Source: a virus
Lineage: Duplodnaviria > Heunggongvirae > Uroviricota > Caudoviricetes
Virus record (IMG/VR): IMGVR_UViG_3300042992_000089
Reading direction: 5' to 3' (one strand)
DNA: 64,000 bases
Shown: piece by piece, positions 1 through 24,556 of the stretch
Layout: each line of letters starts with the position of its first letter
Numbering within the stretch: the first letter of the stretch is position 1
The notes under the pieces: model-generated
Told to the model about the DNA's origin: nothing
The model's database searches: none
The model's input: the letters and a program-made list of their open reading frames with translations, nothing else
Made by a program: the position numbers and the translations under genes

Positions 1-2
1 CA

Positions 3-1688
3 TCTGGTTCATCAGCTACATCTGGTTCATCAGGCACTGGAGGAACTAGTGGATCTAGTGGCACATCAGGTAGCTCTGGTCTTGCTGGTGATAGATATGC
101 TACCTTCTCAACTACACCTTTTACTTTAGGTAATGCAGGTACAATAACAGTAGGAACTGGCTTAGCATACACAGTGGGTCAATCTGTGCTCATAGCAAAT
201 AATCAATTTAATTATCAACATAGCGTAGTTATTTCATATATTTCTGGAACAGGAGCTTTACAATTTGCAGCACCTGATGTATTAGTAGGATCTGGAACAT
301 ATTCTATCTGGTCTGTTAACCTTGTAGGTGCAGCAGGTGGTGATGGTTCTAGTGGAACATCAGGCTCTTCTGGTACCTCTGCTACAAGTGGGTCTTCTGG
401 CTCAAGTGGTAGTTCAGGTACAAGTGCTACTAGTGGATCTAGTGGAACTAATGGAAGCTCAGGAACATCTGCATCTTCAGGTACTTCTGGCTCATCAGGT
501 ACTGATGGTAGTTCTGGAACTGCTGGTACTTCTGGTACCTCTGGCACAGCTGGTTCTAATGGAACATCAGGAACAAATGGTACTGATGGTAGCAATGGTA
601 CATCTGGTACCTCTGGAACAAATGGTTCATCTGGAACTGATGGTTCATCAGGTACTAATGGATCTTCTGGAACAAGTGGAACGTCTGCATCAAGTGGAAC
701 GAGTGGAACAAGTGGTACAAGTGGAACTAATGGAACATCTGGATCGTCTGGTAAAGATGGTAGTACAGGTGCAGCTATTGCTAACTGGTATGGAGAGTTC
801 TCTAGTACACAAACACAACCATTGCTTGGAGTGAATACTCCTACAATATGGACGTTTGACACTACAAGTTTATCTTATGGTATTTCTGTAGTGGCTAGCT
901 CAAGAGTAACAGTTTCACATCCTGGTCAATATGAATTCATCTTCTCAGCACAGGTTAGTAAAACAACATCTCCAATTGCTGAGGTACAGATATGGCCTAG
1001 AATCAATGGCTTTGATGTAGCTAATTCAAATTCATTTATAGAAATACAGCAAACAGAGGTGGAATACATTCCTACTATTGCTTATATATTTAATCTACAA
1101 GCTAATGATTATGTACAGTTTGTCTTTGCATCTGCTGATTCAACAGTTCAACTTGTTGCTAAACCTGCACAAGTTTCTCCTTATGCATCTCCAGCTGCTC
1201 CTTCAATAATATTAACTGCTAAGCAAGTGGGTGTTGCTGTTTCAGGTACATCTGGTACAAGTGGAACAACTGGCACATCTGGTACTTCTGCATCAAGTGG
1301 AACTTCTGGATCTTCTGGAACAAGTGCTAGCTCAGGTACATCAGGTACAGATGGTAGCTCAGGCACTGCAGGTACTAGTGGTAGCACAGGTACATCAGGT
1401 ACTGCAGGTACGTCAGGATCATCTGGAACTTCAGCTAGCTCTGGTAGTGATGGATCATCTGGCACTAGTGGCACTGATGGAAGTTCTGGTACGAGTGGAA
1501 CGAGTGGAACTAGTGGAACTGATGGGTCTTCTGGAACAGCAGGAACAACAGGTACAGCAGGAACAACAGGAACTAGTGGTACTGTAGGTACATCTGGAAC
1601 ATCAACAACAAGTCTTGGTACAAGTGGAGATTCAATCACTATACCTCCTTCAGAAGGAACTACAACTACAACAACCACTGCACCTTAA
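3..1688 (+). CDS. Collagen-like fiber protein, 5' partial. Gly-X-Y tracts (X,Y = S/T/D/A/N) flank a central C1q/BclA-like jelly-roll domain; poly-Thr C-terminal tail.
   Basis: The open frame is unbroken from window position 3; the GTG at 174 in the ORF track is internal. It reads [16 protein letters not shown]... with Gly at every third residue. The central segment IANWYGEF...PGQYEFIFSAQV...NDYVQFVF...QVG has a C1q/TNF-like pattern that also closes the 16891 ORF. The protein ends TTTTTTTAP. Confidence 0.75.
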   Translation, partial: SGSSATSGSSGTGGTSGSSGTSGSSGLAGDRYATFSTTPFTLGNAGTITVGTGLAYTVGQSVLIANNQFNYQHSVVISYISGTGALQFAAPDVLVGSGTYSIWSVNLVGAAGGDGSSGTSGSSGTSATSGSSGSSGSSGTSATSGSSGTNGSSGTSASSGTSGSSGTDGSSGTAGTSGTSGTAGSNGTSGTNGTDGSNGTSGTSGTNGSSGTDGSSGTNGSSGTSGTSASSGTSGTSGTSGTNGTSGSSGKDGSTGAAIANWYGEFSSTQTQPLLGVNTPTIWTFDTTSLSYGISVVASSRVTVSHPGQYEFIFSAQVSKTTSPIAEVQIWPRINGFDVANSNSFIEIQQTEVEYIPTIAYIFNLQANDYVQFVFASADSTVQLVAKPAQVSPYASPAAPSIILTAKQVGVAVSGTSGTSGTTGTSGTSASSGTSGSSGTSASSGTSGTDGSSGTAGTSGSTGTSGTAGTSGSSGTSASSGSDGSSGTSGTDGSSGTSGTSGTSGTDGSSGTAGTTGTAGTTGTSGTVGTSGTSTTSLGTSGDSITIPPSEGTTTTTTTAP

Positions 1689-1712
1689 TAATAAATAAAT
1701 AAAGAAATAAAA

Positions 1713-4547
1713 ATGCCTTATAGTAACATTACAATAACCATTCAGACAGGTCTTACGTTTATTCCTGGACAATATGTCCAAGTGATACATGATGAGAACA
1801 ACTATATGTTTGGTCAAGTTGTATCATATAATTCAGGAACAGGACAATTCATATTTGAACCAGTTAGTTATTTAGGAGCTGGTACATTTACTAGTTGGAC
1901 TGTTGTAACTTCAGCTGCTCCTGGTGAGGATGGAACAAGTGGTACGTCTGGAACTGCTGGATCTAGTGGTTCAACAGGAACCTCAGGTTCTAGTGGAACT
2001 GATGGTAGTTCAGGAACAAGTGGAAGTGCAGGTACTAGTGGCACTGATGGCTCTAGTGGTACATCAGCATCTTCAGGAACAAGTGGATCTTCAGGAACTG
2101 ATGGTTCATCTGGAACATCTGCTACGTCTGGATCTACTGGTACAAGTGGATCGAGTGGATCAAGTGGTTCATCTGGTAGCTCAGGTACTTCTGCTTCTAG
2201 TGGATCTTCTGGCACATCTGGAACAGATGGATCTAGTGGTACATCAGGAACAGATGGCTCAAGTGGAACTGCAGGAACTACTGGTACATCAGGTACGAGT
2301 GGTAGTGATGGTTCTTCTGGTACAAGTGCAACAAGTGGCTCATCTGGTACGTCAGCTTCTAGTGGTTCCTCTGGAACTTCTGGTTCAAGTGGTAGTGCAG
2401 GTACTGCAGGTCTTTCTGGAGACTTATATAAAACAACATCAACTACATCATTAGCAATAGGAACAGGTACAAAGAATCTTACTGTTGGTACAGGTTTATC
2501 TTACACAGTGGGACAGGTTGTAGTTCTTGCTTATGATCTAAGCAATAGCATGGGTGGTGATATTATATCTTATAATTCTGGATCAGGTGCAATGTCTGTA
2601 AACGTAACTGCTACTACTGGTAGTGGTACTTATGCAGCATGGGATGTAAACTTAGGTGGTGCTGCTGGAGGTGATGGATCTTCAGGTACTAGTGGTGCAG
2701 ATGGTATTGATGGTAATCTTGCTATATGGAGATTCTCTACAAACACAGATACAAGCACAGACCCAGGTAGTGGATATTTTAGATTAAACTCTGCAACATG
2801 GGGAGCAAGCGTAACAGCAATTGCTATTGACAATCAATCATACTCTCCAAGCGTAAACTTTGGTACATACCTAGATACATTACAGAACAACTCTATTATA
2901 AAACTTGTATATGTTAGTGATAAGAATACATTCAAGATTTTAAGAATAGATGCTCTTCTTCCTAATCAAACAGGATTTGAAGAATTCACTGTAACACAAT
3001 TAGGATCAGGTGGTACAGATCCTAATGATAATGATCAATTCTATTTTGAATTTAATGGTATAAGTGGATCTTCTGGTACTTCAGGTACGAGTGGAACATC
3101 TGGCACTACAGGTACTAATGGTTCGTCTGGTACTGATGGTTCTTCAGGAACGTCAGGATCAAGTGGAACTTCAGCATCTAGTGGTACGTCAGCTTCCTCT
3201 GGTACATCAGGTACATCAGGCACTGATGGGTCTAGTGGAACATCTGCTTCTAGTGGATCAAGTGGTACTGATGGATCGTCTGGTACTTCTGGTACTGATG
3301 GCTCATCTGGTACAAGTGGATCGTCTGGCACTGATGGATCAAGTGGTACTAGTGGTACTTCTGCTTCTTCTGGAACTAGTGGTTCAAGTGGAACAGATGG
3401 CTCTAGTGGAACAAGTGGAACAACAGGAACAAGTGGAACATCAGGTTCTTCAGGTACTAATGGAAGTTCTGGTACATCAGCTTCAAGTGGTTCTTCTGGT
3501 ACAGATGGTAGTTCTGGAAAGAATGGATCATCTGGAACTAGTGCATCTAGTGGTACAAGTGGTACGAGTGGATCAAGTGGAAGTTCAGGAAGTAGTGGAA
3601 GCTCTGGAACTTCAGGATCTTCTGGTTCTTCTGGTTCTTCAGGCTCTTCTGGAAAGGCTGGTTCATCAGGTACATCTGGAGCCAATGGAGCTACAGGTCC
3701 TCAAGGTCCAACAGGTGGACCTGGCCCAACTGGACCACAAGGAGCAACTGGACCACAAGGTGCAACAGGTGGACCAGGCCCTACTGGTCCTCAAGGTGCA
3801 CAAGGACCACAAGGTGCAACAGGACCACAAGGACCTCAAGGTCCAGGTGGGCCTCCAGGACCAACAGGACCAACAGGACCACAAGGACCTACAGGTGTTG
3901 TTGGTGGATTGAGTCAAGGTGTACAAACATATGGTTCTGTTGTAACAACAACAGCTAATAATGGATGGGCTGGTTATCAAACAACAACAGCTGGTGTATA
4001 TCATCAATTGATGTCAGCTGGTGGTGATTATGGATTGTATTCTAATAGTTATAGCTGGGGACATTATTATAGTGCTGGTAACAATGGTTGGGGTATTCGT
4101 GGAAGCACCACTGTAAACTGGGCTGCTTGTACTACGAATGGTACAATGTATTATACATCAGAGTCTTATGCTACATATAATATGTTTGCTGTATCCTTTG
4201 TACCTACTTCTGATGTTAGACTTAAAGAAAACTTTGCTCCATTAGAAAACTCTCTTGATAAACTTAAAGGCTTACAAGGTGTATCTTATAACAGAATTGA
4301 AGATATTACTAAGAGAAGAGAGATTGGTTTTGTAGCACAAGAGGTTGAGAAAACATTGCCAGAGTTTGTACATTATCATGAAGATACAGATGTATATGGT
4401 ATTGCTTATGATAAGATGACAGCTTTACTTACAGAAGGTTTGAAAGAAGAAGATCAGAAAGTAGATGCTATAGAGGCAAGAGTCTTAACTTTAGAAGCCA
4501 AGATTGCAACATTAGAAACACGTTTAGGTAACTTAGAAAATATATAA
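1713..4547 (+). CDS. Tail fiber / collagen-like protein with a C-terminal intramolecular chaperone (peptidase S74-like) domain
   Basis: It has long GSS/GTS Gly-X-Y tracts and a true GPQ/GPT collagen tract ([25 protein letters not shown]...) at about 3690-3900. The C-terminal 112 aa, [29 protein letters not shown]...[15 protein letters not shown]...[10 protein letters not shown]...[18 protein letters not shown], match the self-cleaving endosialidase/tail-fiber chaperone signature (DxRLKxN ... GxIAQEV ... PE ... LLxEAIKEL ... coiled coil). A repeated 70-aa globular cassette sits at the N-terminus and again around residues 240-330. Confidence 0.8.
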
Positions 4548-4549
4548 TT

Positions 4550-4945
4550 ATGTCAAAAGAATATAGATGGGGGATACAGGATTTAAAGATAGCTAAGTCT
4601 GCTGATGGATTAACAAATGTAATAAAGAAAGTTTATTACAGAAGAAGTCTTAAGCAAATTGTAAATGATATACAACATGATGTTCATTACTTTGGTGAGT
4701 TTAAATTAGCTCCTGCAAATCCTACAAGCTTTACAGAATATCAAAATCTCACTCAGGAACAAATATTTACATGGTTAGATGCTATTCTTCCTGTAGATTT
4801 TATAAACTCTAGGTTGGATGATTACATGGCTAAGAAGCTTGAGAAAGATGAACTTGAAGCATTCCAACTTCCTAATCGACTAGTCACTGAAGAAGTAGAT
4901 CCTACAAAACTTCCAAACTCACCAGGAGGTCAGATAGGAGAATAA
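4550..4945 (+). CDS. Hypothetical protein; position suggests a fiber-associated or assembly protein
   Basis: Its ATG overlaps the fiber gene stop (TAATTATG). I see no recognisable motifs. Confidence 0.5.
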   Translation: MSKEYRWGIQDLKIAKSADGLTNVIKKVYYRRSLKQIVNDIQHDVHYFGEFKLAPANPTSFTEYQNLTQEQIFTWLDAILPVDFINSRLDDYMAKKLEKDELEAFQLPNRLVTEEVDPTKLPNSPGGQIGE

Positions 4946-4952
4946 AACAATT

Positions 4953-4984
4953 TTTGGAAAGGGTGCAAGGATTAACTATCTTTG
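4953..4984 (+). promoter_or_regulatory. Candidate Bacteroidota-type promoter: TTTG -33-like element plus a TATCTTTG -7 box
   Basis: TATCTTTG at 4977-4984 lies 18 nt upstream of the ATG at 5003. TTTG at 4953-4956 lies about 21 nt further upstream. There is no SD. Confidence 0.35.
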
Positions 4985-5002
4985 TACCCTTAATTATTTA
5001 AT

Positions 5003-5605
5003 ATGAAAAACAAAACATTAGTCTTTCCTCAAAAAGAAATAGATGTTCAAAACTATTATTGGTTTAAACATGGATTTGATGATAATGCATTGAATCAAAT
5101 TTATCAAGATGTTGCCACTCTTCCTTTTATGGATGCTGGGACAGGAGATGATAATATTCAGGATAAGAAGGTAAGATCATCAAAGATAAAATGGATTCCC
5201 CAAGAAGATAAGTGGGAGTGGGTATATGCAAGATTAATGGGAATGATTGTCGAAGCAAATAAATCTTTATGGAACTTTGATTTACATAGTGTATTAGATA
5301 ATATTCAATATACAGAATATCATGCTGAGGATGGTGGACATTATGATTGGCATCAAGATCTTGGACCAGGTTGGTTATCAAGAAGAAAGATAAGCATCAC
5401 TGTACAATTATCTGATCCTAGTGAATATGAAGGAGGTGAATTAGAATATTGGAAAGGTGGTCCACCTGAAAATGCAGATAAAGCACCTAAAGGAAAAGGA
5501 GTTGTATTTATATTTCCTTCATACATGATGCACAGAGTGACACCAGTTACAAAGGGAGTGAGAAGATCATTGGTATTGTGGATAGGAGGAATTCCTTTTA
5601 AATAG
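5003..5605 (+). CDS. 2OG-Fe(II) oxygenase, prolyl 4-hydroxylase-like (P4Hc-like)
   Basis: It carries the HxD...H...RxS triad in canonical spacing: HYDWHQD, GGELEYW, PSYMMHRVTPVTKG, RRSLVLWI. Its size (200 aa) and layout resemble the small viral/bacterial P4H-like enzymes. Confidence 0.7.
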   Translation: MKNKTLVFPQKEIDVQNYYWFKHGFDDNALNQIYQDVATLPFMDAGTGDDNIQDKKVRSSKIKWIPQEDKWEWVYARLMGMIVEANKSLWNFDLHSVLDNIQYTEYHAEDGGHYDWHQDLGPGWLSRRKISITVQLSDPSEYEGGELEYWKGGPPENADKAPKGKGVVFIFPSYMMHRVTPVTKGVRRSLVLWIGGIPFK

Positions 5606-6689
5606 GAAGTTTAGACATAACATCATTTACTGAAATACTCTTATGACATTCAAAATGTCTAGGAGTATTTTCATTTTCAGGACACCACATCCAGTCTCCT
5701 TTGTTAAACTTGAACATAGGATTGTTCCAACATCCATTACATACATCCTTATTAGTTATGCGTATACAGTTGTTTTGAAACTCATGGTCTTCTGTTGTGA
5801 AGTTAGATATCATAACTCCTTGCTTACCTAATCCCCAATTGAGCCAACTGATTCCACTAGATAATCCTATGTATGTATCTGCATACCACAGATAGTTCAT
5901 TACATTCTCAAGAGATGTATCTTCTAACTTCTCTGCTCCATAGTCATCTGCTTCCTGAGATAGTTCAAACACTCTATATCCTTTAATCTTTAGTGTTTGT
6001 ATTAGTTCTGGCCAGTAATACCAGTGCTTACACTGAGCTGTAGATCTAGTGGAGATACAAATATATTCATTAACTGCAGGTCTTTCTTTAGGAGTGAATG
6101 CAATCCTAGGCTGTAACTCTTCATGCTCTAAGCACAAGATATTACTAGCTGCCTGTTGTAATGGTATAGTGGCAGGATGTACAGGTTCTTTTGATTCATC
6201 CCAATACCAGCCAATCTCCATCATTGCAATTATATTAGGAACAGACTGTCCTCTTCCTACAAACTCTAATTCAGGATATACATCTTTGAATAGTTCATTC
6301 CTGAACGTGGATACAATAACATGACAATCATACACTTCTTTAAACTTTAAACAATAGGGCATCCAGGCAATGCTATCTCCTAATGATTTACTTTCAAAAG
6401 ATATAAACACTCTCTTTCCTTTCACCTCATCTAATATGTTGATTTGCTTAACTGTACGTCCTTGGTATTTGACAAAGATGGCTATGTCAGATAGATACTT
6501 TCTATTAAGTCTAGCCCATGCTCCTGGCTTTAGTTTTGTTTCATAGATAGTTATGTGTTGATCTGTAAACATACCATCCACCTTACCTTTTCTATCTACA
6601 AACTGTATATCATACTCTCTATCTTTTCCTTCGTCTCCTGTTAGTTCAAAGTATAAACCATTAACATGGTGTAAGTTATATGTTATCAT
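5598..6689 (-). CDS. Glycosyltransferase, TibC/BAHT-like (autotransporter O-heptosyltransferase-like, GT9-related)
   Basis: It has the SLGDSIAWMPY...FKEVYDCHV motif typical of the TibC/AAH heptosyltransferase family, and a C-terminal Cys-rich CNGCWNNP...CPENE...CHK segment. Confidence 0.55.
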   Translation of the reverse strand: MITYNLHHVNGLYFELTGDEGKDREYDIQFVDRKGKVDGMFTDQHITIYETKLKPGAWARLNRKYLSDIAIFVKYQGRTVKQINILDEVKGKRVFISFESKSLGDSIAWMPYCLKFKEVYDCHVIVSTFRNELFKDVYPELEFVGRGQSVPNIIAMMEIGWYWDESKEPVHPATIPLQQAASNILCLEHEELQPRIAFTPKERPAVNEYICISTRSTAQCKHWYYWPELIQTLKIKGYRVFELSQEADDYGAEKLEDTSLENVMNYLWYADTYIGLSSGISWLNWGLGKQGVMISNFTTEDHEFQNNCIRITNKDVCNGCWNNPMFKFNKGDWMWCPENENTPRHFECHKSISVNDVMSKLPI

Positions 6690-7264
6690 TTCTCTGTATT
6701 AAAAAAGAATGTTTGAAATAGTCTACCATCTTGTAGATCTTTGCCAAAGTAATCCAAAGATACATGGAATAAGTCACCTCTATATAAAATAAGTCTGTTA
6801 TATACATTACCTATTCTATCTACCATCTCCCACTTTGTATAATCCATACCTTCAACATGTGGTGCTGCAGTTTTTGTTTCTTCTTCTGTATGTTCAGTAT
6901 ATATCCAATTCTTAAGACCTGTTTCTTTGTGTCTAAAGATACCTGTGCCTGAAGACAAAGGAGCATCAGGAGTAAGATAGCACACACCTGCCCAATTTGT
7001 AGTGCCATCACTGTGAATCCATGATCTATCTTGTGCTGTTGTGTATTGGAAAGCACCTGAATTATCATCTCCCCACCAAACTACATCACCTGCAAAGGGT
7101 CTAATATTATCTTGTATTATTTGTTTAATACTATCATTTAGAAAAGACTTAGTTCTTCTACCAGGATAGTTACCAGACTCACCAAATTCTTGACTCATAG
7201 CAAACGCTCTCACCTCATCTGGGTTATTGTAAAAGTCTGATATGGATAACATTTCTACTCTCAT
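6686..7264 (-). CDS. Hypothetical protein, possibly a cupin/2OG-oxygenase-like fold
   Basis: WIHSDG (HxD) and a later LFHVS His give a weak resemblance. Its start overlaps the neighbour in an ATGA arrangement. Confidence 0.3.
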   Translation of the reverse strand: MRVEMLSISDFYNNPDEVRAFAMSQEFGESGNYPGRRTKSFLNDSIKQIIQDNIRPFAGDVVWWGDDNSGAFQYTTAQDRSWIHSDGTTNWAGVCYLTPDAPLSSGTGIFRHKETGLKNWIYTEHTEEETKTAAPHVEGMDYTKWEMVDRIGNVYNRLILYRGDLFHVSLDYFGKDLQDGRLFQTFFFNTEK

Positions 7265-8283
7265 AAGTTGTTGTATGCGTTTATATATAATTGTCTTGTT
7301 CTGTCTGATGTATATCCTTCATTAATCTTCAGTATGTTATAATAATACTTAGCCAAGATTTTAGCTACATTGTCCCAGCTATATTCTTCACGTCTATCTA
7401 ATATAGCCTGTCTACGTTCTTCATAGTTGTGTATTACATTTACAATACCATCTACCACAGACTCTGTTGTAATTTTATTAATCACATGCATACCAGGGAT
7501 AGGTTTACTACCTCTATAAGTTCCCACAATAGGAACTCCACATGCTGTAGCTTCCATCAATGTTAGATTAGGATGTCCTGCTTCTAGCATAGATGGATGT
7601 ACAAAGATTGTACTAGATCTGTATAACTCTCTAGTCTCATCATCTGTAGGGTTTGTTAACTTTAAAGTTAACTTTGGATAATCCAATAGCTCAGAATGTA
7701 TCTCAAAGAACTTGTTGTTATCAGGATGCCCAGCTATTGTAATAGGTAGGTTTAATAACTTAGCTGCTTCTATACCAAATCTAAATCCTTTTCTATCATA
7801 TCCAGAATCACCTGCTAATCCATTGTTAGCTAACATTAATAAAGAGTGTGGTCTTGGTGCATAGTCAGGAGTAAAGAATTCTGTATTAGCCCCATGTGGT
7901 AGATAGAATAATTTATCTGTAGCATCAAAGTAATCTATAAGATATTCAGCATGCGTAAAAGATATAATGCTATGCTTCATAGCCTCTAGGTTTTGCTTAA
8001 ACACCCAGCTATCTTTACCATACCATTCTGTGTGGTGATCATGTAGAGAGTATACATAAGGTATACCTTTATCTCTACAATATAAAGCTTGATTAGCTAA
8101 ATGAGCATGAACAATTGTGTTAGGCCATTTCTCTAAGTCATTCATATATTTAACATCTACAACATGTCCTTGTTTCTCAAGGGCAACCTTATATTCCCAT
8201 GTAAGCCTTTCAACAGCTCCCCATCCATTTGGTGGTATGGTGATTAGTCCTGTTGCTACATGTACTGATTTTATTGGTTCCAT
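7261..8283 (-). CDS. Glycosyltransferase family 4 (GT-B fold)
   Basis: The C-terminal MEATACGVPIVGT matches the GT4 E-x7-E/ACG motif, and the N-terminal domain is typical of GT4. Confidence 0.7.
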   Translation of the reverse strand: MEPIKSVHVATGLITIPPNGWGAVERLTWEYKVALEKQGHVVDVKYMNDLEKWPNTIVHAHLANQALYCRDKGIPYVYSLHDHHTEWYGKDSWVFKQNLEAMKHSIISFTHAEYLIDYFDATDKLFYLPHGANTEFFTPDYAPRPHSLLMLANNGLAGDSGYDRKGFRFGIEAAKLLNLPITIAGHPDNNKFFEIHSELLDYPKLTLKLTNPTDDETRELYRSSTIFVHPSMLEAGHPNLTLMEATACGVPIVGTYRGSKPIPGMHVINKITTESVVDGIVNVIHNYEERRQAILDRREEYSWDNVAKILAKYYYNILKINEGYTSDRTRQLYINAYNNL

Positions 8284-8945
8284 TTGGTTCTAAATTTAAT
8301 TTCATCAATTCTAAACTTCCTTTCTTTCTCTTCACTCATACCTCCCACATTTAATGTTTCCATATGACAGACAATAGAATGTCTTACAAGAGCATGTTTA
8401 ATACCAGCCTGCTTTAGTCTTTCTGCATAGTCGTTGTCTTGATAGTACATATCAAACAACTCATCAAATGGTAAGATCTTATCTAGTGCAGACTTCTTAA
8501 TCACTGTACACCAACCTTGTAATGCTTCTGTCACAGCATAAGATTCATGATACTTACTATCAGTTCCTACAAAATGATTAGGGAACCATCTAGCATATAA
8601 CAATGGGTCTTTAGGAGAGAATGCTTCTATGTCTTCTCTGTAGTCATGTACCTTCATCATCTCTGAGAACCACCATCTTTCATAAGCTACATCATCATTA
8701 GATATAACCACCCAATCACCTTGGCAATATGTAAATGCTATGTTTAAAAACTTGTTGTAGTTAAAAGAATTCTCAGGATGTATATAGTTATGAATACGTG
8801 CATACCTATTTGGATCTTGTGTACCTGAGTCTACTAATTGCACACGAAACCTAAAGTCAATCTCACTATCATGCAATGTATCTATTGTACGTTGTGTCAG
8901 AGCCACATTAGTGCTATCTGTTAATATGATTACATCTATTGTCAT
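8271..8945 (-). CDS. Glycosyltransferase, GT-A fold (GT2-like)
   Basis: VVISNDDVAY is a DxD-like motif in a roughly 220-aa GT-A sized protein. Confidence 0.5.
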   Translation of the reverse strand: MTIDVIILTDSTNVALTQRTIDTLHDSEIDFRFRVQLVDSGTQDPNRYARIHNYIHPENSFNYNKFLNIAFTYCQGDWVVISNDDVAYERWWFSEMMKVHDYREDIEAFSPKDPLLYARWFPNHFVGTDSKYHESYAVTEALQGWCTVIKKSALDKILPFDELFDMYYQDNDYAERLKQAGIKHALVRHSIVCHMETLNVGGMSEEKERKFRIDEIKFRTKWNQ

Positions 8946-11605
8946 TTCTTTCTGAATGATTTATGTGTATTGTCTATTAAAGAAAATCCATCTGCTTGGG
9001 TAGTAAGTCTTTTCTTAACCATTCCCATTTGAGGCCCTGCAAAGATACTATTAAAATACATATCAGCAGCATCCCATTTGTGTGTTCTTAAGTTGTTCTT
9101 TAAAAACTTAGCTGCCTCTTTTGGAAACATAATAGATTGTAAACCAATGATATGATTGGTTACATACATTTCATTATTGATATCTTTAACAATAGGTGAT
9201 TGTGGCCAGCCATGTTCTAGTGTATCAGCATCTCCAAAAGACATATAGTTTATGTTGTTTGGTACCAATAAGTGTGCACATTCCTCAACTTTTCGTACGA
9301 AAAAGTGTATGTCTGTCTCAATGATACAATCTCCTTCACACACCATTAAGAAGTCACAATCATGAAACTCTGTTAAGATGGCATTCTTAAATGCTTCGTA
9401 GCATCCATAATGTGCTGGGGTAAGTGCAGTGCCATACTGTTGAATTTGTTGCTCATTGAAGAGTTCCATTGAAACACAATCTGGTCTGAGACAGTTATGC
9501 TTGGGTGGTAATGACTTATAGGGCTCGTTAAACTGTATGACATATTCCCAGCCATGGTCTTTGACTCTTTCAAGGGATGCTCTACTTTGTTGTTCTCTTT
9601 CATCATTTAATGTGGTTTGTATATGAACTAATTTAATCTTAGGTCTTTCGTTCTTCCATTCAAACTTTCCTGTGTGTTGGTACTTATGTAAGTTATCTTT
9701 GGTCAGCTTAAACTCTTCCAACTTATATTGAACATCTCCATCATAAAAATCCATTTTAATATCTATAGGATCTCCTTTGAATTCAAACTGATAAACAAGT
9801 TCATGGTTCTTAGCTGGTATTATTCTTTTCCACATGTAATCTTCAATAGATACATAGATGTTTCTATAGTCTCTGTTATATGTAAAGAAGTAGAACACAT
9901 AATTGTTTGGTTTTCCAACAACAGGGATGATAGAATAATACTCACTATTTGATGCTACACCTAATCCACTGTGAACTAACAAGGTATCCTTATCATTAGT
10001 AACTAACTGTATATCATTTGGGTTGAAGCTAAAGATAACCTTTGACAAATAGTCTTCTAGATAGTTCTCACATCTTCTTCTCTTACACACTTCGTTCCAT
10101 TCTTCTGGTGTACGCACATCATCAAACTCTTTCAAGAAGAAGTCTGTGTCAAACATAATACCATTGGTCTGAATTCCCTTACCCTGTGGAGTGGGTAGGG
10201 TAGCAGCATATAACTTTTTATCTGTTCTGAATGCATCATTTACTGCAGGGATATCTCTAGGATCTAATACAACATCATATGTAGTATAGAAGAACCTCTT
10301 AAACCCAAGCTCTTTAGCAACCTTAGCTGCATTAAATATATTAGTTAAGACAGTCAATGACTGGTTACTATTCTTCAATCCATTGATGTTGATCTCAGCA
10401 AAGTAGTCTGGTCTGTCATTGTAAAACCTGGTGTAATAACTGTGATGAGTCAAAGGATTATGCACATCGTATATATAACAATCCACCATGTTTTGAATGT
10501 CTATATCTACAGGATAGTGAGACACTAGTATAATCTTTCTACCCAATGGTTTAAGACTATTGATAGTATCCTTAGTCCATTGAATCCTATCCTTAATGTT
10601 TGGATAGGTGCCTAAGATGATACACTCTTCTTCCATTACATCTAAGTTTAATTTTTTGATAATATTGGTAGCATCACTACCAAGATCTCCAGTTAAATAA
10701 ACCATGTTCTCTTCATTGTTATATTTGTTACAGTATACATCTAGATTATACATCACTTTGATCAAGTCATCATATTCCATGGCTTCTTTAATAGCAATAG
10801 GATTTAACTCCTTGTTACCTCTATCTCCCTTTGATGGAAAGAAGAATACATCACATGCTTTTAAGAAGTCACTTACATCATCACGCTCTCCCCAGACAAC
10901 ACAGTTGTTTGGTTTATTAGCCATCAGTGGCTTCCAATAATTCTCAAAGTTACCTGCTTGGTTACCTAGGAAGTGAAACTTCACCTTATAGTTCTTAAGT
11001 CTTTCTGCTAGTTGAAATGCATAAGCTTGATTCTTTCTAGGTGTAAATAGTCCTACAGTTACAAAGTGTTTGTATTCAGGATCTAAGCCATAGTCTTTTT
11101 GTCTTTCTACTTTATTTCTAACCTTCTTATCAATAGGATATTCAATTACTTCTGTAGGTACATCTAAGTCTATGTATTGGAATGAGTTGTAAGAGCTAAC
11201 AAATATAAACTTGTCAGGCATCCATCTCTTGTGCTTAGGATTGAATGAGCTGTCATGCGTAGTCTCTGATATCTTCCAAGTTCTATTATCTGAATAGATG
11301 AATGCAGAAAGCTTGTCGTCCATGAACATCTCAGGAAACTCTTCCATCACTATAACATCTGGATTGAACTGTTCAATAATTCCAGACAGTTCACCATACT
11401 TATCTTCTCCTAAAGAATGGAAGTTAACTCCTTCTGTAAGCATTTGAATGATCTTGTTTCGCTGTACAACAAATGACCATGCTAGAAATGAATACTCTAC
11501 CACCTTAATTTCAAAGTAATCTTTTAACAGTTCCACTTTGTTTACTGTTACCTGAGGAGCCCCTCCTGTTGATAGGTGAGGAGTGATTATTAATAGCTTT
11601 TTCAT
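8942..11605 (-). CDS. Large multidomain glycosyltransferase: N-terminal GT4 module plus additional C-terminal transferase-like domains
   Basis: The N-terminus MKKLLIITPHLSTGGAPQ plus FFFPSKGDRGNKELNPIAIKEAMEY matches GT4 N- and C-motifs. The C-terminal 300 aa (GCYEAF...FLMVCEGDCII) look like a second nucleotide-sugar transferase domain, possibly GT25-like, but this is unverified. Confidence 0.6.
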   Translation of the reverse strand: MKKLLIITPHLSTGGAPQVTVNKVELLKDYFEIKVVEYSFLAWSFVVQRNKIIQMLTEGVNFHSLGEDKYGELSGIIEQFNPDVIVMEEFPEMFMDDKLSAFIYSDNRTWKISETTHDSSFNPKHKRWMPDKFIFVSSYNSFQYIDLDVPTEVIEYPIDKKVRNKVERQKDYGLDPEYKHFVTVGLFTPRKNQAYAFQLAERLKNYKVKFHFLGNQAGNFENYWKPLMANKPNNCVVWGERDDVSDFLKACDVFFFPSKGDRGNKELNPIAIKEAMEYDDLIKVMYNLDVYCNKYNNEENMVYLTGDLGSDATNIIKKLNLDVMEEECIILGTYPNIKDRIQWTKDTINSLKPLGRKIILVSHYPVDIDIQNMVDCYIYDVHNPLTHHSYYTRFYNDRPDYFAEININGLKNSNQSLTVLTNIFNAAKVAKELGFKRFFYTTYDVVLDPRDIPAVNDAFRTDKKLYAATLPTPQGKGIQTNGIMFDTDFFLKEFDDVRTPEEWNEVCKRRRCENYLEDYLSKVIFSFNPNDIQLVTNDKDTLLVHSGLGVASNSEYYSIIPVVGKPNNYVFYFFTYNRDYRNIYVSIEDYMWKRIIPAKNHELVYQFEFKGDPIDIKMDFYDGDVQYKLEEFKLTKDNLHKYQHTGKFEWKNERPKIKLVHIQTTLNDEREQQSRASLERVKDHGWEYVIQFNEPYKSLPPKHNCLRPDCVSMELFNEQQIQQYGTALTPAHYGCYEAFKNAILTEFHDCDFLMVCEGDCIIETDIHFFVRKVEECAHLLVPNNINYMSFGDADTLEHGWPQSPIVKDINNEMYVTNHIIGLQSIMFPKEAAKFLKNNLRTHKWDAADMYFNSIFAGPQMGMVKKRLTTQADGFSLIDNTHKSFRKK

Positions 11606-12301
11606 TTATGTAAATCTCTTTTTGTATGGATTATCAATTGTCTGATCTTCTACTGTAATATTTAAAAAGTTAAAACCTTGTAATGGACCACTAAGATACC
11701 CTATCTTGCCTGAAAAAAAAGTATTAAATGCAAGGCTTATTCTAGTTTTATCATCACTTGTTGTTGGAACACTATGTTCTGTAGTAGATGGGAATAGAAC
11801 AATATCTCCTTTATTTACAGGGAAATAAGCTTCAACACAAGTATACATGTTTTGTTCTTTTGCCTGTATTTGTAAATTATTAGGCAATGCTCTTCCAAAC
11901 ATTATCTTATCTGTATTCTTATCTGCATTGAAATATAAACATCCACTAATTATACTGTTTGGATGATGGTGCTGATGATGTGATTGTTCTTTCTTTGTGT
12001 AATTAAACCAAGACTGAGTTATAGATAATTTAAGTCCTTCTGGATTTATAGGATTATACACGTTTATCAAGTAATCATTAAGAATGGACTCAATGAATAG
12101 TTTTACATTACTAAGTTTAGGATTGTTTAAAACATACAAATTGTGTGTTGTAGAGTTTGATGAATTTCTAAATACATCACTTTCATACTCATATGCACAT
12201 TCTATTTCTTCATTAGTAAAGTCTCTATTGATGTTATTTAATAAAACAGGGATAGGGAAGATTGGTACTATTACTCCTCCTTGGTTTTGTTGTTCTGACA
12301 T
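11606..12301 (-). CDS. 2OG-Fe(II) oxygenase (TIGR02466-like family common in marine phages)
   Basis: The pattern HHQHHHPNSIISGCLYF ... GDIVLFPS ... H ... RISLAFN matches the conserved H..HPxS..SG.YY / FPS..xH / RISISFN signature of that family. Confidence 0.6.
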   Translation of the reverse strand: MSEQQNQGGVIVPIFPIPVLLNNINRDFTNEEIECAYEYESDVFRNSSNSTTHNLYVLNNPKLSNVKLFIESILNDYLINVYNPINPEGLKLSITQSWFNYTKKEQSHHQHHHPNSIISGCLYFNADKNTDKIMFGRALPNNLQIQAKEQNMYTCVEAYFPVNKGDIVLFPSTTEHSVPTTSDDKTRISLAFNTFFSGKIGYLSGPLQGFNFLNITVEDQTIDNPYKKRFT

Positions 12302-12302
12302 A

Positions 12303-13229
12303 TTATAAATTATTATTGATTGCGTGAATTACTTGTTCTACAGATGGATGACATTCAAAAGTTTCTTTCTTCTCTAAGCATCCTATTAATGGTTGTACAT
12401 AATCTATTGTTGGCCAATACTCAAGAGCATATTTCATATTAGAATTACAATGTAATCCACAACCTCCTCTTACATATATGTGCTTGCCTTCTTGTCTATG
12501 TGGTGTACGAAACTCTGGATTGATAGGAGATCCTAACTCAACAATGTCAGTTTTGGTTGTGCCTGCTAGATGTAGAATACCTGAGTCCATGGTGATAACA
12601 ACCTTAGCATTGTTAATGAGATGCCAAGTTTGAGCGATGGATGTCTTATTCATAAGGTTTATAACGTTATCGTCCATCTTATGTACAGGTTTGTTTACAT
12701 TAAAGAATCCTGTCTCAGAACTATCCTTACCAACTGCCACCACTTTGTAGCCCCATTTATTTAATTCATCAACTAGTTTAAGCCAGTTCTCTTGTGACCA
12801 AGTTCTATTGGGCCAGCTATTAACAGGATGTATCACAGCATATCTACCCTCTACAGAAACATTAGGTTCTTCTGTAGGCTGATAGAAACATTCTAATTCA
12901 TCTTTTCCAAGCATAAATCCTAGATGTATAGCATGGAACTGCCTAATATCCATCATGTTGTGCTTCATCTCTATACCACGCTCATCTTTCTTACCCACTA
13001 GATAGAATGAATTATGTATAATGTAATTACTTTGTATGTACGTCATGTCTATAGAGCTAGCTTTGTAGCTCTTTTCTACATAAGGGTTCATCTTAAACAA
13101 CTCAGGCATCTGAGAGATGACTATAATCTTTCTTTGATACGCATCATGAAGCTTTTTAATAGTGGGGGTGGCACAGATAAGATCACCCAATCCATTACAT
13201 TCTTCTAGATTTAAACAAACTGGTTTCAT
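12303..13229 (-). CDS. Glycosyltransferase family 9 (ADP-heptose:acceptor heptosyltransferase-like)
   Basis: GLGDLICATPTIKKL, WPNRTWSQENWLKLVDEL..GYKVVAVG and VITMDSGILHLAG are the classical RfaC/RfaF-type GT9 motifs. The track ORF begins at a TTG at 13391 with a junk N-terminus. I place the start at the ATG at 13227-13229 (MKPVCLNLEEC...). Confidence 0.75.
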   Translation of the reverse strand: MKPVCLNLEECNGLGDLICATPTIKKLHDAYQRKIIVISQMPELFKMNPYVEKSYKASSIDMTYIQSNYIIHNSFYLVGKKDERGIEMKHNMMDIRQFHAIHLGFMLGKDELECFYQPTEEPNVSVEGRYAVIHPVNSWPNRTWSQENWLKLVDELNKWGYKVVAVGKDSSETGFFNVNKPVHKMDDNVINLMNKTSIAQTWHLINNAKVVITMDSGILHLAGTTKTDIVELGSPINPEFRTPHRQEGKHIYVRGGCGLHCNSNMKYALEYWPTIDYVQPLIGCLEKKETFECHPSVEQVIHAINNNL

Positions 13230-13246
13230 CTGTTGGTTATTTAAAA

Positions 13247-13263
13247 CAAAGTTACTATATTTG
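13247..13263. promoter_or_regulatory. Divergent candidate promoter pair (TAnnTTTG boxes on both strands)
   Basis: TAACTTTG on the minus strand at 13254..13247 lies 17 nt upstream of the GT9 ATG. TATATTTG on the plus strand at 13256..13263 lies 24 nt upstream of the ATG at 13288. This is a strand-switch point. Confidence 0.4.
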
Positions 13264-13287
13264 TTGGAAATAAAAAACATTTTTACT

Positions 13288-13656
13288 ATGAAAATTGAAG
13301 TTTCTGTGGGGGAAGTTGTAGACAAATGGACTATACTTTCTATCAAAGCTCTGAACATTACAGACAAAGACAAACTAGTTAATGTTTTCAAAGAGAAAAC
13401 TTATCTAAATGATGCTGTACATCCTGAGATATTACATGATCCTTTGACAGACATGTTGCTTGAAGTTAATAAAGCTCTTTGGAAAGTGGAAGATCTTATA
13501 AGAGACTTTGAAAGAGCTAATAGTTTTGGAGAAGAGTTTATTGATTTAGCTAGATCTGTCTACAAGTTGAATGATAAAAGAGCACATATTAAAAAAGAAA
13601 TTAATATTAAGTATGGGTCTGACTTTGTAGAGGAGAAATCCTACCAGCCCTACTAA
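13288..13656 (+). CDS. Hypothetical protein
   Basis: This is an ATG-initiated ORF. The track version starts at a GTG at 13162 that overlaps the divergent promoter and is probably an over-extension. Confidence 0.5.
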   Translation: MKIEVSVGEVVDKWTILSIKALNITDKDKLVNVFKEKTYLNDAVHPEILHDPLTDMLLEVNKALWKVEDLIRDFERANSFGEEFIDLARSVYKLNDKRAHIKKEINIKYGSDFVEEKSYQPY

Positions 13657-16890: not shown

Positions 16891-17859
16891 ATGGCTATAC
16901 CAAGCAGACAGATAGGATGGGGAACAGAAGAAAACCTTTTATGGCAAATTTCTAAGCAATTAGAAGCTATAAATGGTGTTGCATATAACGCAGGTGGTGG
17001 TGGTGGCACTGGTACCTCTGGTACAAGTGGTGCTGCTGGTTTATCAGGAACATCAGGAACTAGTGGTGTTGTAGGTACGTCTGGAACTTCAGGTCTTTCT
17101 GGTACATCTGGTATCAGTGGTACCAATGGTATCAGTGGTACTAATGGAGTTAGTGGAACAAGTGGTACTTCAGGAATTGATGGAACTTCTGGTATAGATG
17201 GTACTAGTGGAATAAATGGAACAGCTGGAACTTCAGGTGATAATGGTTCATCAGGAACAAGTGGCGAAACTGGTACTTCTGGTATAGATGGTACTTCAGG
17301 AACATCAGGTGAATCAGGTACTTCAGGAGTAAGTGGTACAGCTGGAACAGCTGGTATTGCAGGAACTGCAGGAACTAGTGGAGTTAATGGGGTTGTTGGT
17401 GGTTATTTAGGATCTTTCTATGATACTACAAGTCAAACAGGTCTTGCAGGAGCTGTTCTTACAATGGGTCTTACTAATTCAGATTCTTGGAATAATGGTG
17501 TTTCACTTGTTTCTGGTAATCAAATAACAATAGCTAATCCTGGTGTATATAATATACAATTTAGTGCACAGATGGTAAAAAATGCTGGTAACACTGCAAC
17601 GCATGCACACATTTGGCTATCACAAAATGGTACAAATGTACCTACTAGTGCTTCTCAATTAGGATTTCCTTCTAACTCTGTGTATGTTGTAGCAGCTTGG
17701 AATTTCTTTTTCAAGACAACAGTGGCTAATGAATATGTACAGCTTAAATGGGAAATAAATAGTAATGTAAACGATGCAATAGTTATCCAATCAGCTGCAG
17801 CTACAGGAAATGTTCCTGCTATCCCTGGTCTAATTGTAACAGTAAATCAAGTAGGATAA
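16891..17859 (+). CDS. Collagen-like protein with a C-terminal C1q/BclA-like jelly-roll domain
   Basis: The N-terminal module is [25 protein letters not shown], followed by [13 protein letters not shown]... Gly-X-Y repeats. The C-terminal domain, [12 protein letters not shown]...[13 protein letters not shown]...NEYVQLKW...QVG, is homologous to the central domain of the first fiber ORF and has a C1q-like pattern. Confidence 0.8.
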
Positions 17860-18035: not shown

Positions 18036-19052
18036 ATGAAGGATCTTAAATTTATCTGTGCACAACCAGATGATGTCTACTACACATGGCAAGTACATCT
18101 ATGGTTGGAAAGCTTGAAGAAGCTTGGACACTCAGACAAGGCAATTGTTTTAGTGTATACACCTAGTTTTAGAGAATACAATGGCAAATGGGAGAAGATC
18201 ATGGAACTGTATCCTGAAGCAAAGTTTGCTTTCTACAAGGATTCAGGAGACGTAAGTCAGTATTTAGGAGTTTATATTCCTATTCTACGTCCTTACTGCT
18301 TAATGAGATATTTCCAGGATAATCCTGATATGGTTACCAAAGCAGTGTTTTACTGTGATTGTGACGTAATCTTTACAGATAAATTTGATGTTGACAAGTT
18401 TAAAGATGATGATATAAACTATCTATCTGATACAAACAGTTACATCAATGCTTCATATTTTGATAGTAAATTAAAAGATGTCTTATTTGATAAGGTGGAA
18501 GAGTACCAAACTAGAGATGTCTTAGCTGAGCTTACAAGCTTAGTGGGTATAACAAGAGAGATAGCTGAAGCTAACAATGATCACTCAGGAGGAGCTCAGT
18601 ATTTCTTAAAGAACATAGACTCTAACTTCTGGAAGAAGGTGATGAATGACTGTATATTAATACGTGTCTACCTTCAGAATATAAACAAAGAGTTCTTTAA
18701 AGATGAGAACACAGGGTTCCAAAGCTGGTGTGCAGATATGTGGGCTGTGTTATGGAACATTTGGCTTAGAGAACAAGAAGCAAAGAACATTCCTGAGATG
18801 GAATTCTGTTGGTCTTCAGATCCTATAGAGAAGCTTGATAGAACAACAATATTACATAACGCAGGTATTACAGGACAGAACACAATGGGATACCCTGCTT
18901 TCTATAAAGGAGCATATCACACTGGTAAAGATCCTTTTCTAGATACACACATACTAAAAGTGCTTAGTGATGAGACTACTAAAAAACATGCTAATCATTA
19001 CTACACTCAACAACTAATAGAAATAAAAAACAAATATAATATAAATTATTAA
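18036..19052 (+). CDS. Hypothetical protein (possible nucleotide-sugar transferase fold, weak)
   Basis: It is 338 aa with FYCDCDVIF, a DxD-like motif. I see no firm family match. Confidence 0.45.
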   Translation: MKDLKFICAQPDDVYYTWQVHLWLESLKKLGHSDKAIVLVYTPSFREYNGKWEKIMELYPEAKFAFYKDSGDVSQYLGVYIPILRPYCLMRYFQDNPDMVTKAVFYCDCDVIFTDKFDVDKFKDDDINYLSDTNSYINASYFDSKLKDVLFDKVEEYQTRDVLAELTSLVGITREIAEANNDHSGGAQYFLKNIDSNFWKKVMNDCILIRVYLQNINKEFFKDENTGFQSWCADMWAVLWNIWLREQEAKNIPEMEFCWSSDPIEKLDRTTILHNAGITGQNTMGYPAFYKGAYHTGKDPFLDTHILKVLSDETTKKHANHYYTQQLIEIKNKYNINY

Positions 19053-23451: not shown

Positions 23452-24087
23452 TTAGTCTATTATATCATTTGTACCAAACATTGGTACATGCATAATTCTA
23501 TAAGATAAATTGGTACTTTTTGATTTTTCTCCTTTCCCTTCTTTTGACATACCATATATAAATTCCCAGTCGTGTCCATATATTGGTAAATGTTCTGGTA
23601 ATTTTTTGGCTAGTTCTGTTGTTAATATTATTTCACTATGACCTATTTCACAATTAGCAAATTTTGACACTCTAGCTTTATTAATAGGATCTATGAAGGA
23701 GTCAAAGAACATATAATCTAAATTGGTATTTTCTATTTCTAGGTAATTACTAAAATGACTACTAAGTATAATATCATCATTTGCATAGAATATAAAATAT
23801 TTACCTGTAGCATTTTGTATTGCATAGTTAATTAATTTATATCCACATCCTCCTCCATTTTCTTTAGCATTAAAGAAATGAATAATGTTTCCTTTTTTTT
23901 CTTGTTCCTCTTTAATAGATTGTAAATATCCACTATCAATAAGTTTTTGAAAATCTGGACAACAGTCTCCCATTATAAAGGCTTCCCAATTATTAGTATC
24001 TTGGTCTAATATACATTGTATAGATCGTTTGGTTCTCTCAGGTCTACCATAACAAGCCATACTAATTGTTATTCTTGGCTGCATCAT
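23452..24087 (-). CDS. Glycosyltransferase family 2 (GT-A)
   Basis: ISMACYGRPERTKRSIQCILDQD and FYANDDII are GT2-like N-terminal and DxD motifs. Confidence 0.6.
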   Translation of the reverse strand: MMQPRITISMACYGRPERTKRSIQCILDQDTNNWEAFIMGDCCPDFQKLIDSGYLQSIKEEQEKKGNIIHFFNAKENGGGCGYKLINYAIQNATGKYFIFYANDDIILSSHFSNYLEIENTNLDYMFFDSFIDPINKARVSKFANCEIGHSEIILTTELAKKLPEHLPIYGHDWEFIYGMSKEGKGEKSKSTNLSYRIMHVPMFGTNDIID

Positions 24088-24556
24088 TGTTTCCTATGTG
24101 TTTTACAGGCACTCCTGCATATTTTTGATAAGATTCGAGTTTACTTTTTTTAATAACTACACTATTCATGCCAATCATAATTCCTTCTGGTAAGGTTGTT
24201 TTTTGATGAATAGCTGCTCCCATACCAAGGTTCACTTTATTTCCTACAGTACAAAATCCAGCTAATTTAGAACCAGCACTCATAGTTACACTAGACCCAA
24301 GAATACAATCATGAGCTACATAAGCATGTTTCATAAGATAACAATTATTACCAATTACAGTTTGTCTTTCTGCTCCTGAATCAATAGTGACCATTCCAGT
24401 AAGTATAGTACCACTTTTAATTAAAACACCTTTATCTTCATTCTCTTTACCTTTCCATTCAGGTGGCATTCCTATAACACAATAAGGACCTATGTATACA
24501 TCGTCCTCTATTGTAACGTTATTGCCAATAACAGCTGTACTATGTATTGTTTTCAT
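24062..24556 (-). CDS. Hexapeptide-repeat (left-handed beta-helix) acyl/acetyltransferase
   Basis: It has tandem [LIV]-G-x-x-x-x hexapeptide repeats (VIGNNVTIEDDVYIGPYCVIG ... TVGNKVNLGMGAAI). Confidence 0.7.
   Translation of the reverse strand: MKTIHSTAVIGNNVTIEDDVYIGPYCVIGMPPEWKGKENEDKGVLIKSGTILTGMVTIDSGAERQTVIGNNCYLMKHAYVAHDCILGSSVTMSAGSKLAGFCTVGNKVNLGMGAAIHQKTTLPEGIMIGMNSVVIKKSKLESYQKYAGVPVKHIGNNDAAKNNN

Follow-up and report, generated by a model that had tools for sequence, protein, structure and literature searches.

The viral record IMGVR_UViG_3300042992_000089 (IMG/VR; Caudoviricetes) carries, at one end of the 64,000-nucleotide stretch analysed here (the window), two genes for collagen-like tail fibres, fib1 and fib2, followed on the same strand by the gene for Oxy3, a predicted 2-oxoglutarate (2OG)/Fe(II) oxygenase, and then by a convergent minus-strand operon (5598-13280) that encodes seven proteins, among them several glycosyltransferases (GTs), a second oxygenase, Oxy5, and a relative of the protein O-glycosyltransferase TibC. 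A first-pass annotation, made from the letters of the window, had proposed that this phage hydroxylates and glycosylates its own collagen-like fibres. The open reading frames (ORFs) that it named were all found where it had placed them, small corrections aside, and profile hidden Markov model searches returned matches to both oxygenase and GT domains.

The two Gly-X-Y fibre genes, read earlier as 3-1688 and 1713-4547, are confirmed by matches to Pfam Collagen and to PHROG tail-fibre families, and a third collagen-like gene of the G-T/S-S type, beyond the range considered by the first-pass annotation, behaves in the same way (Table 1). All three pass the PF01391 threshold through long unbroken Gly-X-Y runs and are predicted to form trimers. 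The window edge truncates fib1 at its 5' end; the complete protein has 686 residues (L001, 15002-17062) and consists of (G-T/S-S)n tracts that lack proline and are broken up by globular domains. fib2 combines Ser/Thr-rich Gly-X-Y tracts with a single proline tract, the previously reported GPQ/GPT stretch, which is real and occupies residues 659-728; the other Gly-X-Y tracts of fib2 contain 0 prolines. At the C terminus of fib2 (residues 833-887) lies a Peptidase_S74 intramolecular chaperone domain (E = 3.8e-16), a domain typical of phage fibres and spikes. The plus-strand genes are tightly packed, with gaps of 24 bp between fib1 and fib2, 2 bp between fib2 and a small DUF7936 gene, and 57 bp between the latter and Oxy3; the DUF7936 gene is not conserved at this position in related phages.

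Two further observations concern the fibre genes and their surroundings. A non-collagen motif, "PGxYxxxFSAQV...", is common to fib1 (residues ~370-520 of the full protein) and to the C terminus of the third collagen-like protein, which suggests a shared jelly-roll head after the collagen stalk, recalling heads of the BclA/C1q type. Following the third collagen gene, at 18036-19052 on the plus strand, is a conserved 338-residue protein of unknown function (phrog_4417). It contains a DxD-like sequence ("FYCDCDVIF"), matches neither a Pfam family nor a PDB entry, and may be a further glycosyltransferase paired with a collagen gene.

Oxy3 scores 57.6 bits against 2OG-FeII_Oxy_3 (cut-off 27), and residues H117-x-D119, H177 and R187, which make up the HxD...H iron triad and the 2OG-binding basic residue, are invariant in 31 homologues. 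The label 'prolyl-4-hydroxylase-like' given earlier to this ORF is therefore well founded, and in an AlphaFold2 (AF2) model (pLDDT 90.7) the predicted fold is nearest to those of characterised protein prolyl hydroxylases. Homologues of Oxy3 carry the JGI label "PKHD-type hydroxylase", and Oxy3 itself falls below the NCBIfam equivalog cut-off for PiuC/YbiX (PRK05467; best 62.7 bits versus 143).

The convergent operon ends with the gene for the TibC-like enzyme, which exceeds the equivalog cut-off of TIGR04414 (231.6 bits versus 200) and matches the TibC structure 4rap over residues 57-361 (E = 1.2e-40), so that its earlier assignment to the TibC-like heptosyltransferase family holds. Using the TibC residues of Yao et al. 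2014 (PMC4358343) as reference, we compared its active site with that of the characterised enzyme, in which Asp-110 is the catalytic base, Thr-226 and Lys-230 contact the beta-phosphate, Trp-305 contacts heptose O4, Arg-286 contacts adenine N1 of ADP-heptose, and Cys-339/342/358/370 form a Cys4 iron finger. Residues D105, T217, K221 and W282 of the window enzyme correspond to Asp-110, Thr-226, Lys-230 and Trp-305 and vary little or not at all across 92 sequences; C317, C320, C336 and C348 of the iron finger are aligned and invariant; and the position of TibC Pro-300 is occupied by Ser, as in Aah.

The GT9, GT4, GT-A and 887-residue multidomain GT assignments in the rest of the operon likewise stand, with one corrected start. 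The mechanical ORF list begins GT9 at a TTG at 13391, and gene callers on the source contigs place its start at 13280 or 13229; as the callers also begin the neighbouring DUF6165 gene later (13288-13656, compared with 13162-13656 in the ORF list), the overlap with GT9 disappears. GT9 lies below every NCBIfam equivalog cut-off. Oxy5, which had been called a TIGR02466-type oxygenase, is a 2OG-FeII_Oxy_5 protein but not strictly a TIGR02466 member, since it passes PF13759 clearly (75.9 bits) and scores just below the TIGR02466 cut-off (56.3 bits versus 62.5); its nearest PDB entries, 3bvc and 2rg4, are both uncharacterised. The remaining protein, of family DUF6445, had been counted as a third oxygenase-like ORF. 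Its H84-x-D86...H167 pattern is indeed invariant in the alignment, but a PDB sequence search gave no match, and hhalign comparison with the Oxy5 family was not significant (E = 0.034, probability 1.5%) and returned nothing against Oxy3, leaving it a possible oxygenase on the motif.

Table 1. Collagen-like fibre genes, neighbouring enzyme genes and a second sugar cluster in the window
Feature	Coordinates	Strand	Remarks
fib1, collagen-like tail fibre	1-1688	+	Pfam Collagen E 1.6e-34; PHROG tail fibre
fib2, 944-residue collagen-like tail fibre	1713-4547	+	Pfam Collagen E 5.7e-52; PHROG tail fibre
fib2 Pro-containing collagen tract	3687-3896 (residues 659-728)	+	23 triplets; 16 Pro in X, 3 in Y
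Small DUF7936 gene	4550-4945	+	PF25590 E 1.4e-11; between fib2 and Oxy3
Oxy3, P4H-fold (prolyl 4-hydroxylase-fold) 2OG/Fe(II) oxygenase	5003-5605	+	PF13640 2OG-FeII_Oxy_3
TibC/Aah-family GT-B protein O-glycosyltransferase	5598-6689	-	TIGR04414 hepto_Aah_TibC
DUF6445 protein	6686-7264	-	PF20043 E 8e-14; in only some relatives
GT4 (GT-B) glycosyltransferase	7261-8283	-	PF00534 E 7e-10; conserved core, 20/20 related loci
GT2 (GT-A) glycosyltransferase	8271-8945	-	PF00535 E 2.9e-5; variable, ~half of relatives
887-residue multidomain GT	8942-11605	-	N-terminal GT4, then GT-A-fold region(s); conserved core
Oxy5, 2OG-FeII_Oxy_5 oxygenase	11606-12301	-	PF13759, 75.9 bits vs cut-off 27
GT9 (LPS-heptosyltransferase-like)	12303-13280	-	PF01075, 61.8 bits; first gene of conserved core
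Third collagen-like (G-T/S-S) fibre-type gene	16891-17859	+	Pfam Collagen E 1.2e-17; PHROG tail fibre
GT2, second sugar cluster	23452-24087	-	
Hexapeptide-repeat transferase, second sugar cluster	24062-24556	-	
GT2, second sugar cluster	24540-25295	-	

TibC-family enzymes and Gly-Thr/Ser-Ser repeats

To place the locus among its relatives, we assembled a comparison set of about 180 related loci. Twenty viral loci recovered through TibC (L003-L022) share a core of GT9, the 887-residue GT, (GT2), GT4, (DUF6445) and TibC, the genes in parentheses being variable, and this core lies beside fibre genes in all 20. Beyond TibC, collagen-like fibres with (G-T/S-S)n tracts occur in nearly all of the loci that are sufficiently long. 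Among viral loci, Ser/Thr-rich Gly-X-Y genes are present in 18 of the 28 that have TibC, versus 6 of 43 in which TibC is not in view.

A scan of the TibC alignment against 185,579 species genomes recovered bacterial homologues (30-38% identity) in two genomic contexts. In Bradyrhizobium, Burkholderia and Paraburkholderia the gene lies beside giant ORFs of 1500-3300 residues, the classical autotransporter situation. Elsewhere it directly adjoins genes for small proteins that have a signal peptide and proline-free runs of (GTS)n or (GSS)n, an arrangement found in Methylococcales (including the cultured Methylobacter luteus), Arenicellales, Burkholderiales, Acidiferrobacterales and Pseudobdellovibrionaceae. 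A neighbor-joining tree of 92 sequences, E. coli TibC included, separates the two contexts with a bootstrap of 100/100: one clade holds E. coli TibC with 26 of the 27 giant-ORF-linked homologues and has no phage or repeat-linked members, and the other holds 11 of 11 phage representatives and 22 of 22 repeat-linked bacterial homologues. Arg-286 is kept in 26/27 giant-ORF-linked homologues, 8/22 repeat-linked homologues and 3/11 phage enzymes. Given this clade split, the repeat-protein neighbours and the loss of Arg-286, the phage enzyme is best classified, by sequence, as a member of a distinct subfamily within the TibC family of protein glycosyltransferases, one whose consistent partner is a Gly-Thr/Ser-Ser repeat.

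The bacterial members deserve mention in their own right. The (GTS)n/(GSS)n proteins that adjoin TibC-family genes in bacterial chromosomes (L115, L120, L124, L128, L129, L139, L140, L142, L147 and L173) are signal-peptide or lipoprotein-like, and each such pair looks like an undescribed protein-glycosylation pairing. Cultured carriers of the repeat-linked clade include Methylobacter luteus IMV-B-3098 and Methylomicrobium lacus, in which the neighbour is a (GTS)n lipoprotein.

An operon of GTs next to fibre genes could also act on the host envelope, changing its lipopolysaccharide (LPS) core, O-antigen or capsule during infection, for instance as a barrier to superinfection, in which case proximity to the fibres would mark a hypervariable island. 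The GT9, GT4 and GT2 families are commonly associated with LPS and polysaccharides, there are weak NCBIfam matches to LPS heptosyltransferases, the content of the island differs among relatives, and host-envelope (LPS) modification is how GTs beside tail-fibre genes are usually read, as for aquatic myophages (PMC7029224). This is the alternative that survives best, yet we consider it unlikely. The conserved anchor of the island belongs to the TibC/Aah family, whose known members are protein O-glycosyltransferases (PMC4358343), in the chromosomes of unrelated bacteria, too, enzymes of the anchor's clade go with G-T/S-S repeat proteins, and flippase, polymerase or lipid-carrier GT genes were not seen in the island.

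Oxy3 and proline-containing collagen tracts

The reading in which the phage modifies its own fibres also requires a substrate for Oxy3, for which proline-bearing Gly-X-Y tracts are the candidates. A scan of viral contigs recovered 80 loci with an Oxy3 homologue (39-65% identity), which were clustered at 80% identity into 35 informative clusters. Of these 35, 31 have a Pro-bearing Gly-X-Y ORF in the locus, which in 25 precedes the oxygenase gene in the same orientation; the median gap is 489 bp. In most Oxy3 loci with enough upstream DNA, the oxygenase gene is found just downstream of a Pro-containing collagen-like gene in the same orientation. Close relatives have GPT, GPQ or GPN triplets, with proline in X, and others have G-N-P or G-T-P, with proline in the canonical Y position; in one example, a 1290-residue protein with 85 Y-position prolines ends 27 bp before the oxygenase. 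Many Oxy3 contigs show no TibC or other GT-island gene in the stretch fetched, so the link between the oxygenase and proline is seemingly independent of the GT island.

Oxy3 and the proline tracts also come and go together. Among the GT-island sister phages with collagen-like genes, proline tracts are present in 16 of 17 loci that have Oxy3, versus 0 of 11 that lack it (Fisher p = 5.6e-7, phylogeny ignored), and the 1873 Gly-X-Y triplets of those 11 loci contain only 2 prolines. When plotted on the TibC tree, the presence of Oxy3 and that of proline tracts switch jointly several times. Paralogues of Oxy5 among L003-L022 occur only in loci that carry Oxy3 (L004 and L010-L013).

Oxy3 and Oxy5 might instead be general phage 'auxiliary metabolic genes' (AMGs), acting on host translation factors or ribosomal proteins in the style of PPHD on EF-Tu or of OGFOD1/Tpa1 on uS12, or on small molecules. 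The tight, same-strand linkage seen in 31 of 35 clusters, where a Pro-bearing Gly-X-Y gene accompanies the oxygenase, argues against such a role, as do the joint presence and absence of Oxy3 and proline tracts (16/17 versus 0/11) and their repeated joint switches, and we regard it as improbable.

Some neighbours of both enzymes are glycine-rich proteins of the GGxGG/GNPG kind rather than classical Gly-X-Y proteins. They adjoin the TibC gene in L015 (11061-14270) and Oxy3-type genes in L105 (Pelagibacter phage HTVC033P, 3859-7931) and in L090-L100, and could be a further substrate class.

The phage and its other genes

By gene content, the window is assigned to an uncultured aquatic crAss-like phage with an estimated genome of about 110 kb. 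The assignment comes from the Crass_capsid (major capsid) gene, which lies just past the end of the window on the source contig, from the P22-type portal (P22_portal), terminase and other genes encoded elsewhere in the window (DNA polymerase, RIIA/RIIB, ribonucleotide reductase (RNR) and a UvsX-like protein), and from the lack of a nucleotide relative in GenBank: neither a 9.5-kb nor a 22-kb query taken from the window had a megablast match among GenBank phages, which leaves the phage without an annotated close relative. The closest terminases are those of a Leptolyngbya phage (40%) and of Cellulophaga phages (32%), and the phage is present on dozens of metagenome contigs. On the source contigs, giant genes for proteins of 4145 and 1744 residues directly precede the fibre genes, a further crAss-like trait.

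The closest 'bacterial genome' matches to the phage TibC (39-60% identity) are the contigs L108-L112, binned in metagenome-assembled genomes (MAGs) of Bacteroides, Sediminibacterium and Chitinophaga and in one Gammaproteobacteria assembly (L109). Two of them, L108 and L112, have the same layout of fibre and GT genes and look like phage contigs. These matches weakly hint at Bacteroidota hosts for this phage group, in line with the crAss-like capsid.

Two features lie apart from the fibre locus. A second, small sugar cluster (23452-25295, minus strand) is found about 10 kb past the fibre/GT island (Table 1). In the replication module, adjoining the DNA polymerase gene, a 133-residue SET-domain protein (46635-47036, minus strand; PF00856, E = 4e-13) is a putative protein lysine methyltransferase.

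Proposed fibre maturation, precedents and implications

The most probable explanation for these observations, at a probability that we put at roughly 0.6, is that the enzymes of the locus modify the phage's own fibres by prolyl hydroxylation and Ser/Thr O-glycosylation, as part of virion fibre maturation. According to this reading, fib1, fib2 and the third gene would form trimeric collagen-like fibres of a tail-fibre module that carries its own maturation enzymes, with the polypeptides made late, in the cytoplasm. Oxy3, encoded directly after fib2 and probably co-transcribed with it, would hydroxylate prolines within residues 659-728, thereby stabilising or marking the segment that immediately precedes the head and chaperone domain at the C terminus of fib2. 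The TibC-like enzyme would, in the infected cytoplasm, attach a first sugar to Ser/Thr of the Pro-free (Gly-Thr/Ser-Ser)n repeats, a sugar that by homology would be a heptose, and the co-operonic GT9, GT4, GT2 and 887-residue GT-B+GT-A enzymes would extend it into an oligosaccharide. Hydroxyproline and O-glycosylated threonine both stabilise collagen helices. Oxy5 and the DUF6445 protein may take part in the same process, and the modifications may affect fibre stability, host recognition or shielding.

The proposal that the locus as a whole serves the phage's own fibres thus gains from synteny, from co-variation and from the TibC clade for Oxy3 and the TibC-like enzyme; for the other GTs it is operon membership that points to the fibres. 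Several observations weigh against it. The association tests ignore phylogeny, and their loci entered the comparison because they encode these enzymes. In L005 and L006 the oxygenase lies beside non-collagen fibres; in L023, L071 and L101, no Pro-bearing tract was found in the 10 kb upstream (only a weak one in L071); no Gly-X-Y gene adjoins the more distant homologues from a megaphage, S-CAM22 and HTVC033P, two of which lie near tail-fibre genes; and the only Gly-X-Y genes visible in 10 loci with TibC are poor in Ser/Thr. PPHD, the best structural match of Oxy3, hydroxylates EF-Tu, not collagen, and 16 of the 19 prolines of the fib2 tract are at X, while the canonical target of collagen P4Hs is X-Pro-Gly; the 3 Y-position prolines of fib2 provide such sites, and related loci include fibres rich in G-X-P. 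Moreover, bacterial and phage collagens fold without hydroxyproline.

The identity of the sugar is a separate matter. The first-pass annotation had named heptose, which is doubtful, and the donor is perhaps not ADP-heptose, because Arg-286 of TibC is replaced by Val in the window enzyme. Genes for heptose-nucleotide synthesis were not seen in Pfam listings for ~84 kb of the ~110-kb genome, which is a weak negative, as many genes there have no Pfam entry; these two points, too, count against the proposal. A last alternative, that the oxygenases and GTs hypermodify phage DNA by base hydroxylation and then glycosylation (in T4 or TET/JBP-GT style), draws on the use of such enzymes for this purpose in other phages, as cited in PMC12619734, but is without support here and highly improbable.

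The fibre-maturation reading may extend further. More tentatively, and at somewhat less than even odds, phages and bacteria would share a so far unrecognised collagen-maturation pathway, in which enzymes of the distinct TibC clade O-glycosylate (Gly-Thr/Ser-Ser)n repeats, both of phage fibres and of repeat proteins secreted by bacteria, and the abundant 'cryptic' P4H/2OG-Fe(II) oxygenases of aquatic phages hydroxylate prolines of collagen-like tail fibres as enzymes of virion maturation, and are not AMGs.

The nearest characterised counterparts are the bacterial autotransporter heptosyltransferase (BAHT) systems TibC/TibA and Aah/AIDA-I. The phage enzyme has the same fold, family, catalytic Asp, Thr/Lys, Trp and Cys4 iron finger; its gene, likewise, adjoins one for a long, repetitive, Ser-rich surface protein; and it would also act in the cytoplasm. 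Unlike those systems, the partner is a (Gly-Thr/Ser-Ser)n collagen-like fibre and not a beta-helical autotransporter, of which the window has none, and the enzyme belongs to a separate clade (100/100), lacks Arg-286 and lies inside a phage multi-GT operon. A second counterpart is the exosporium collagen BclA of Bacillus anthracis, which has GPT triplets, a globular C-terminal head and heavy Thr/Ser O-glycosylation, in an organism that also has a stand-alone small P4H. There, however, the GTs are of the rhamnose/anthrose pathway, the P4H is unlinked to bclA, and the collagen is on the spore surface rather than the virion.

Viral hydroxylation and glycosylation of collagen are known from Mimivirus (L71, and the lysyl hydroxylase/glucosyltransferase L230), and PBCV-1 has a prolyl 4-hydroxylase. 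The description of the locus as 'eukaryote/giant-virus-like' is nonetheless an analogy only: its GTs are of bacterial types (GT9/TibC, GT4 and GT2), in contrast to animal and Mimivirus collagen, where the enzymes are of the GT25/LH3 kind, and, compared with Mimivirus L230 and animal LH3, the phage offers no Y-position Lys to a lysyl hydroxylase and has no such fusion of lysyl hydroxylase and GT.

In mycobacteriophages, GTs encoded next to structural genes O-glycosylate the phages' own virion proteins (Freeman et al. 2023, as cited in PMC12619734); the targets there are C-terminal tails of capsid and tail-tube proteins, modified by other GT families, with no collagen repeats or hydroxylase involved. 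Iyer et al. 2010 described bacterial operons in which 2OG dioxygenases and sulfotransferases were predicted to modify collagen-like or tail-collar proteins (PMC2938197). As in the window, the dioxygenases there lie beside Gly-rich collagen-like proteins that they are predicted to hydroxylate, but those operons are bacterial and combine beta-hydroxylase/PhyH families with subsequent sulfation, whereas the present locus is a phage one with a P4H-fold enzyme and a TibC-type island. Two sister phages without Oxy3 (L003, 11291-13812; L009, 11264-14556) have extra ORFs between TibC and the fibre gene that, on visual reading of motifs, resemble a nucleotidyltransferase, an APS kinase, a sulfotransferase and an extra GT9; these hint at sulfation of fibres or glycans, in an echo of the bacterial operons.

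The gene identities themselves are not new, since automated pipelines already name the individual genes. Our literature searches turned up no account in which a P4H-type oxygenase is connected with the collagen fibres of phages, or in which one clade of the TibC family goes with Gly-Thr/Ser-Ser repeats; a phage locus with a proposed role in both hydroxylation and glycosylation of collagen appears, as first suggested, to be novel. Genes for 2OG-Fe(II) oxygenases and P4HA are among the commonest unexplained 'auxiliary' genes of aquatic phages, and a Baltic virome survey that found viral P4HA genes to be abundant concluded that the viral use of prolyl 4-hydroxylase "remains cryptic" (PMC9301287). 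If the proposed modification is correct, many such 'AMGs' would be re-annotated as virion-maturation enzymes, and phage receptor-binding structures would gain hydroxyproline and O-glycosylated collagen, with a bearing on host range, stability and shielding from immunity or proteases. The locus would also offer compact prokaryotic tools for producing modified recombinant collagens, and the TibC family would acquire a new substrate class, present in cultured methanotrophs as well as in phages.

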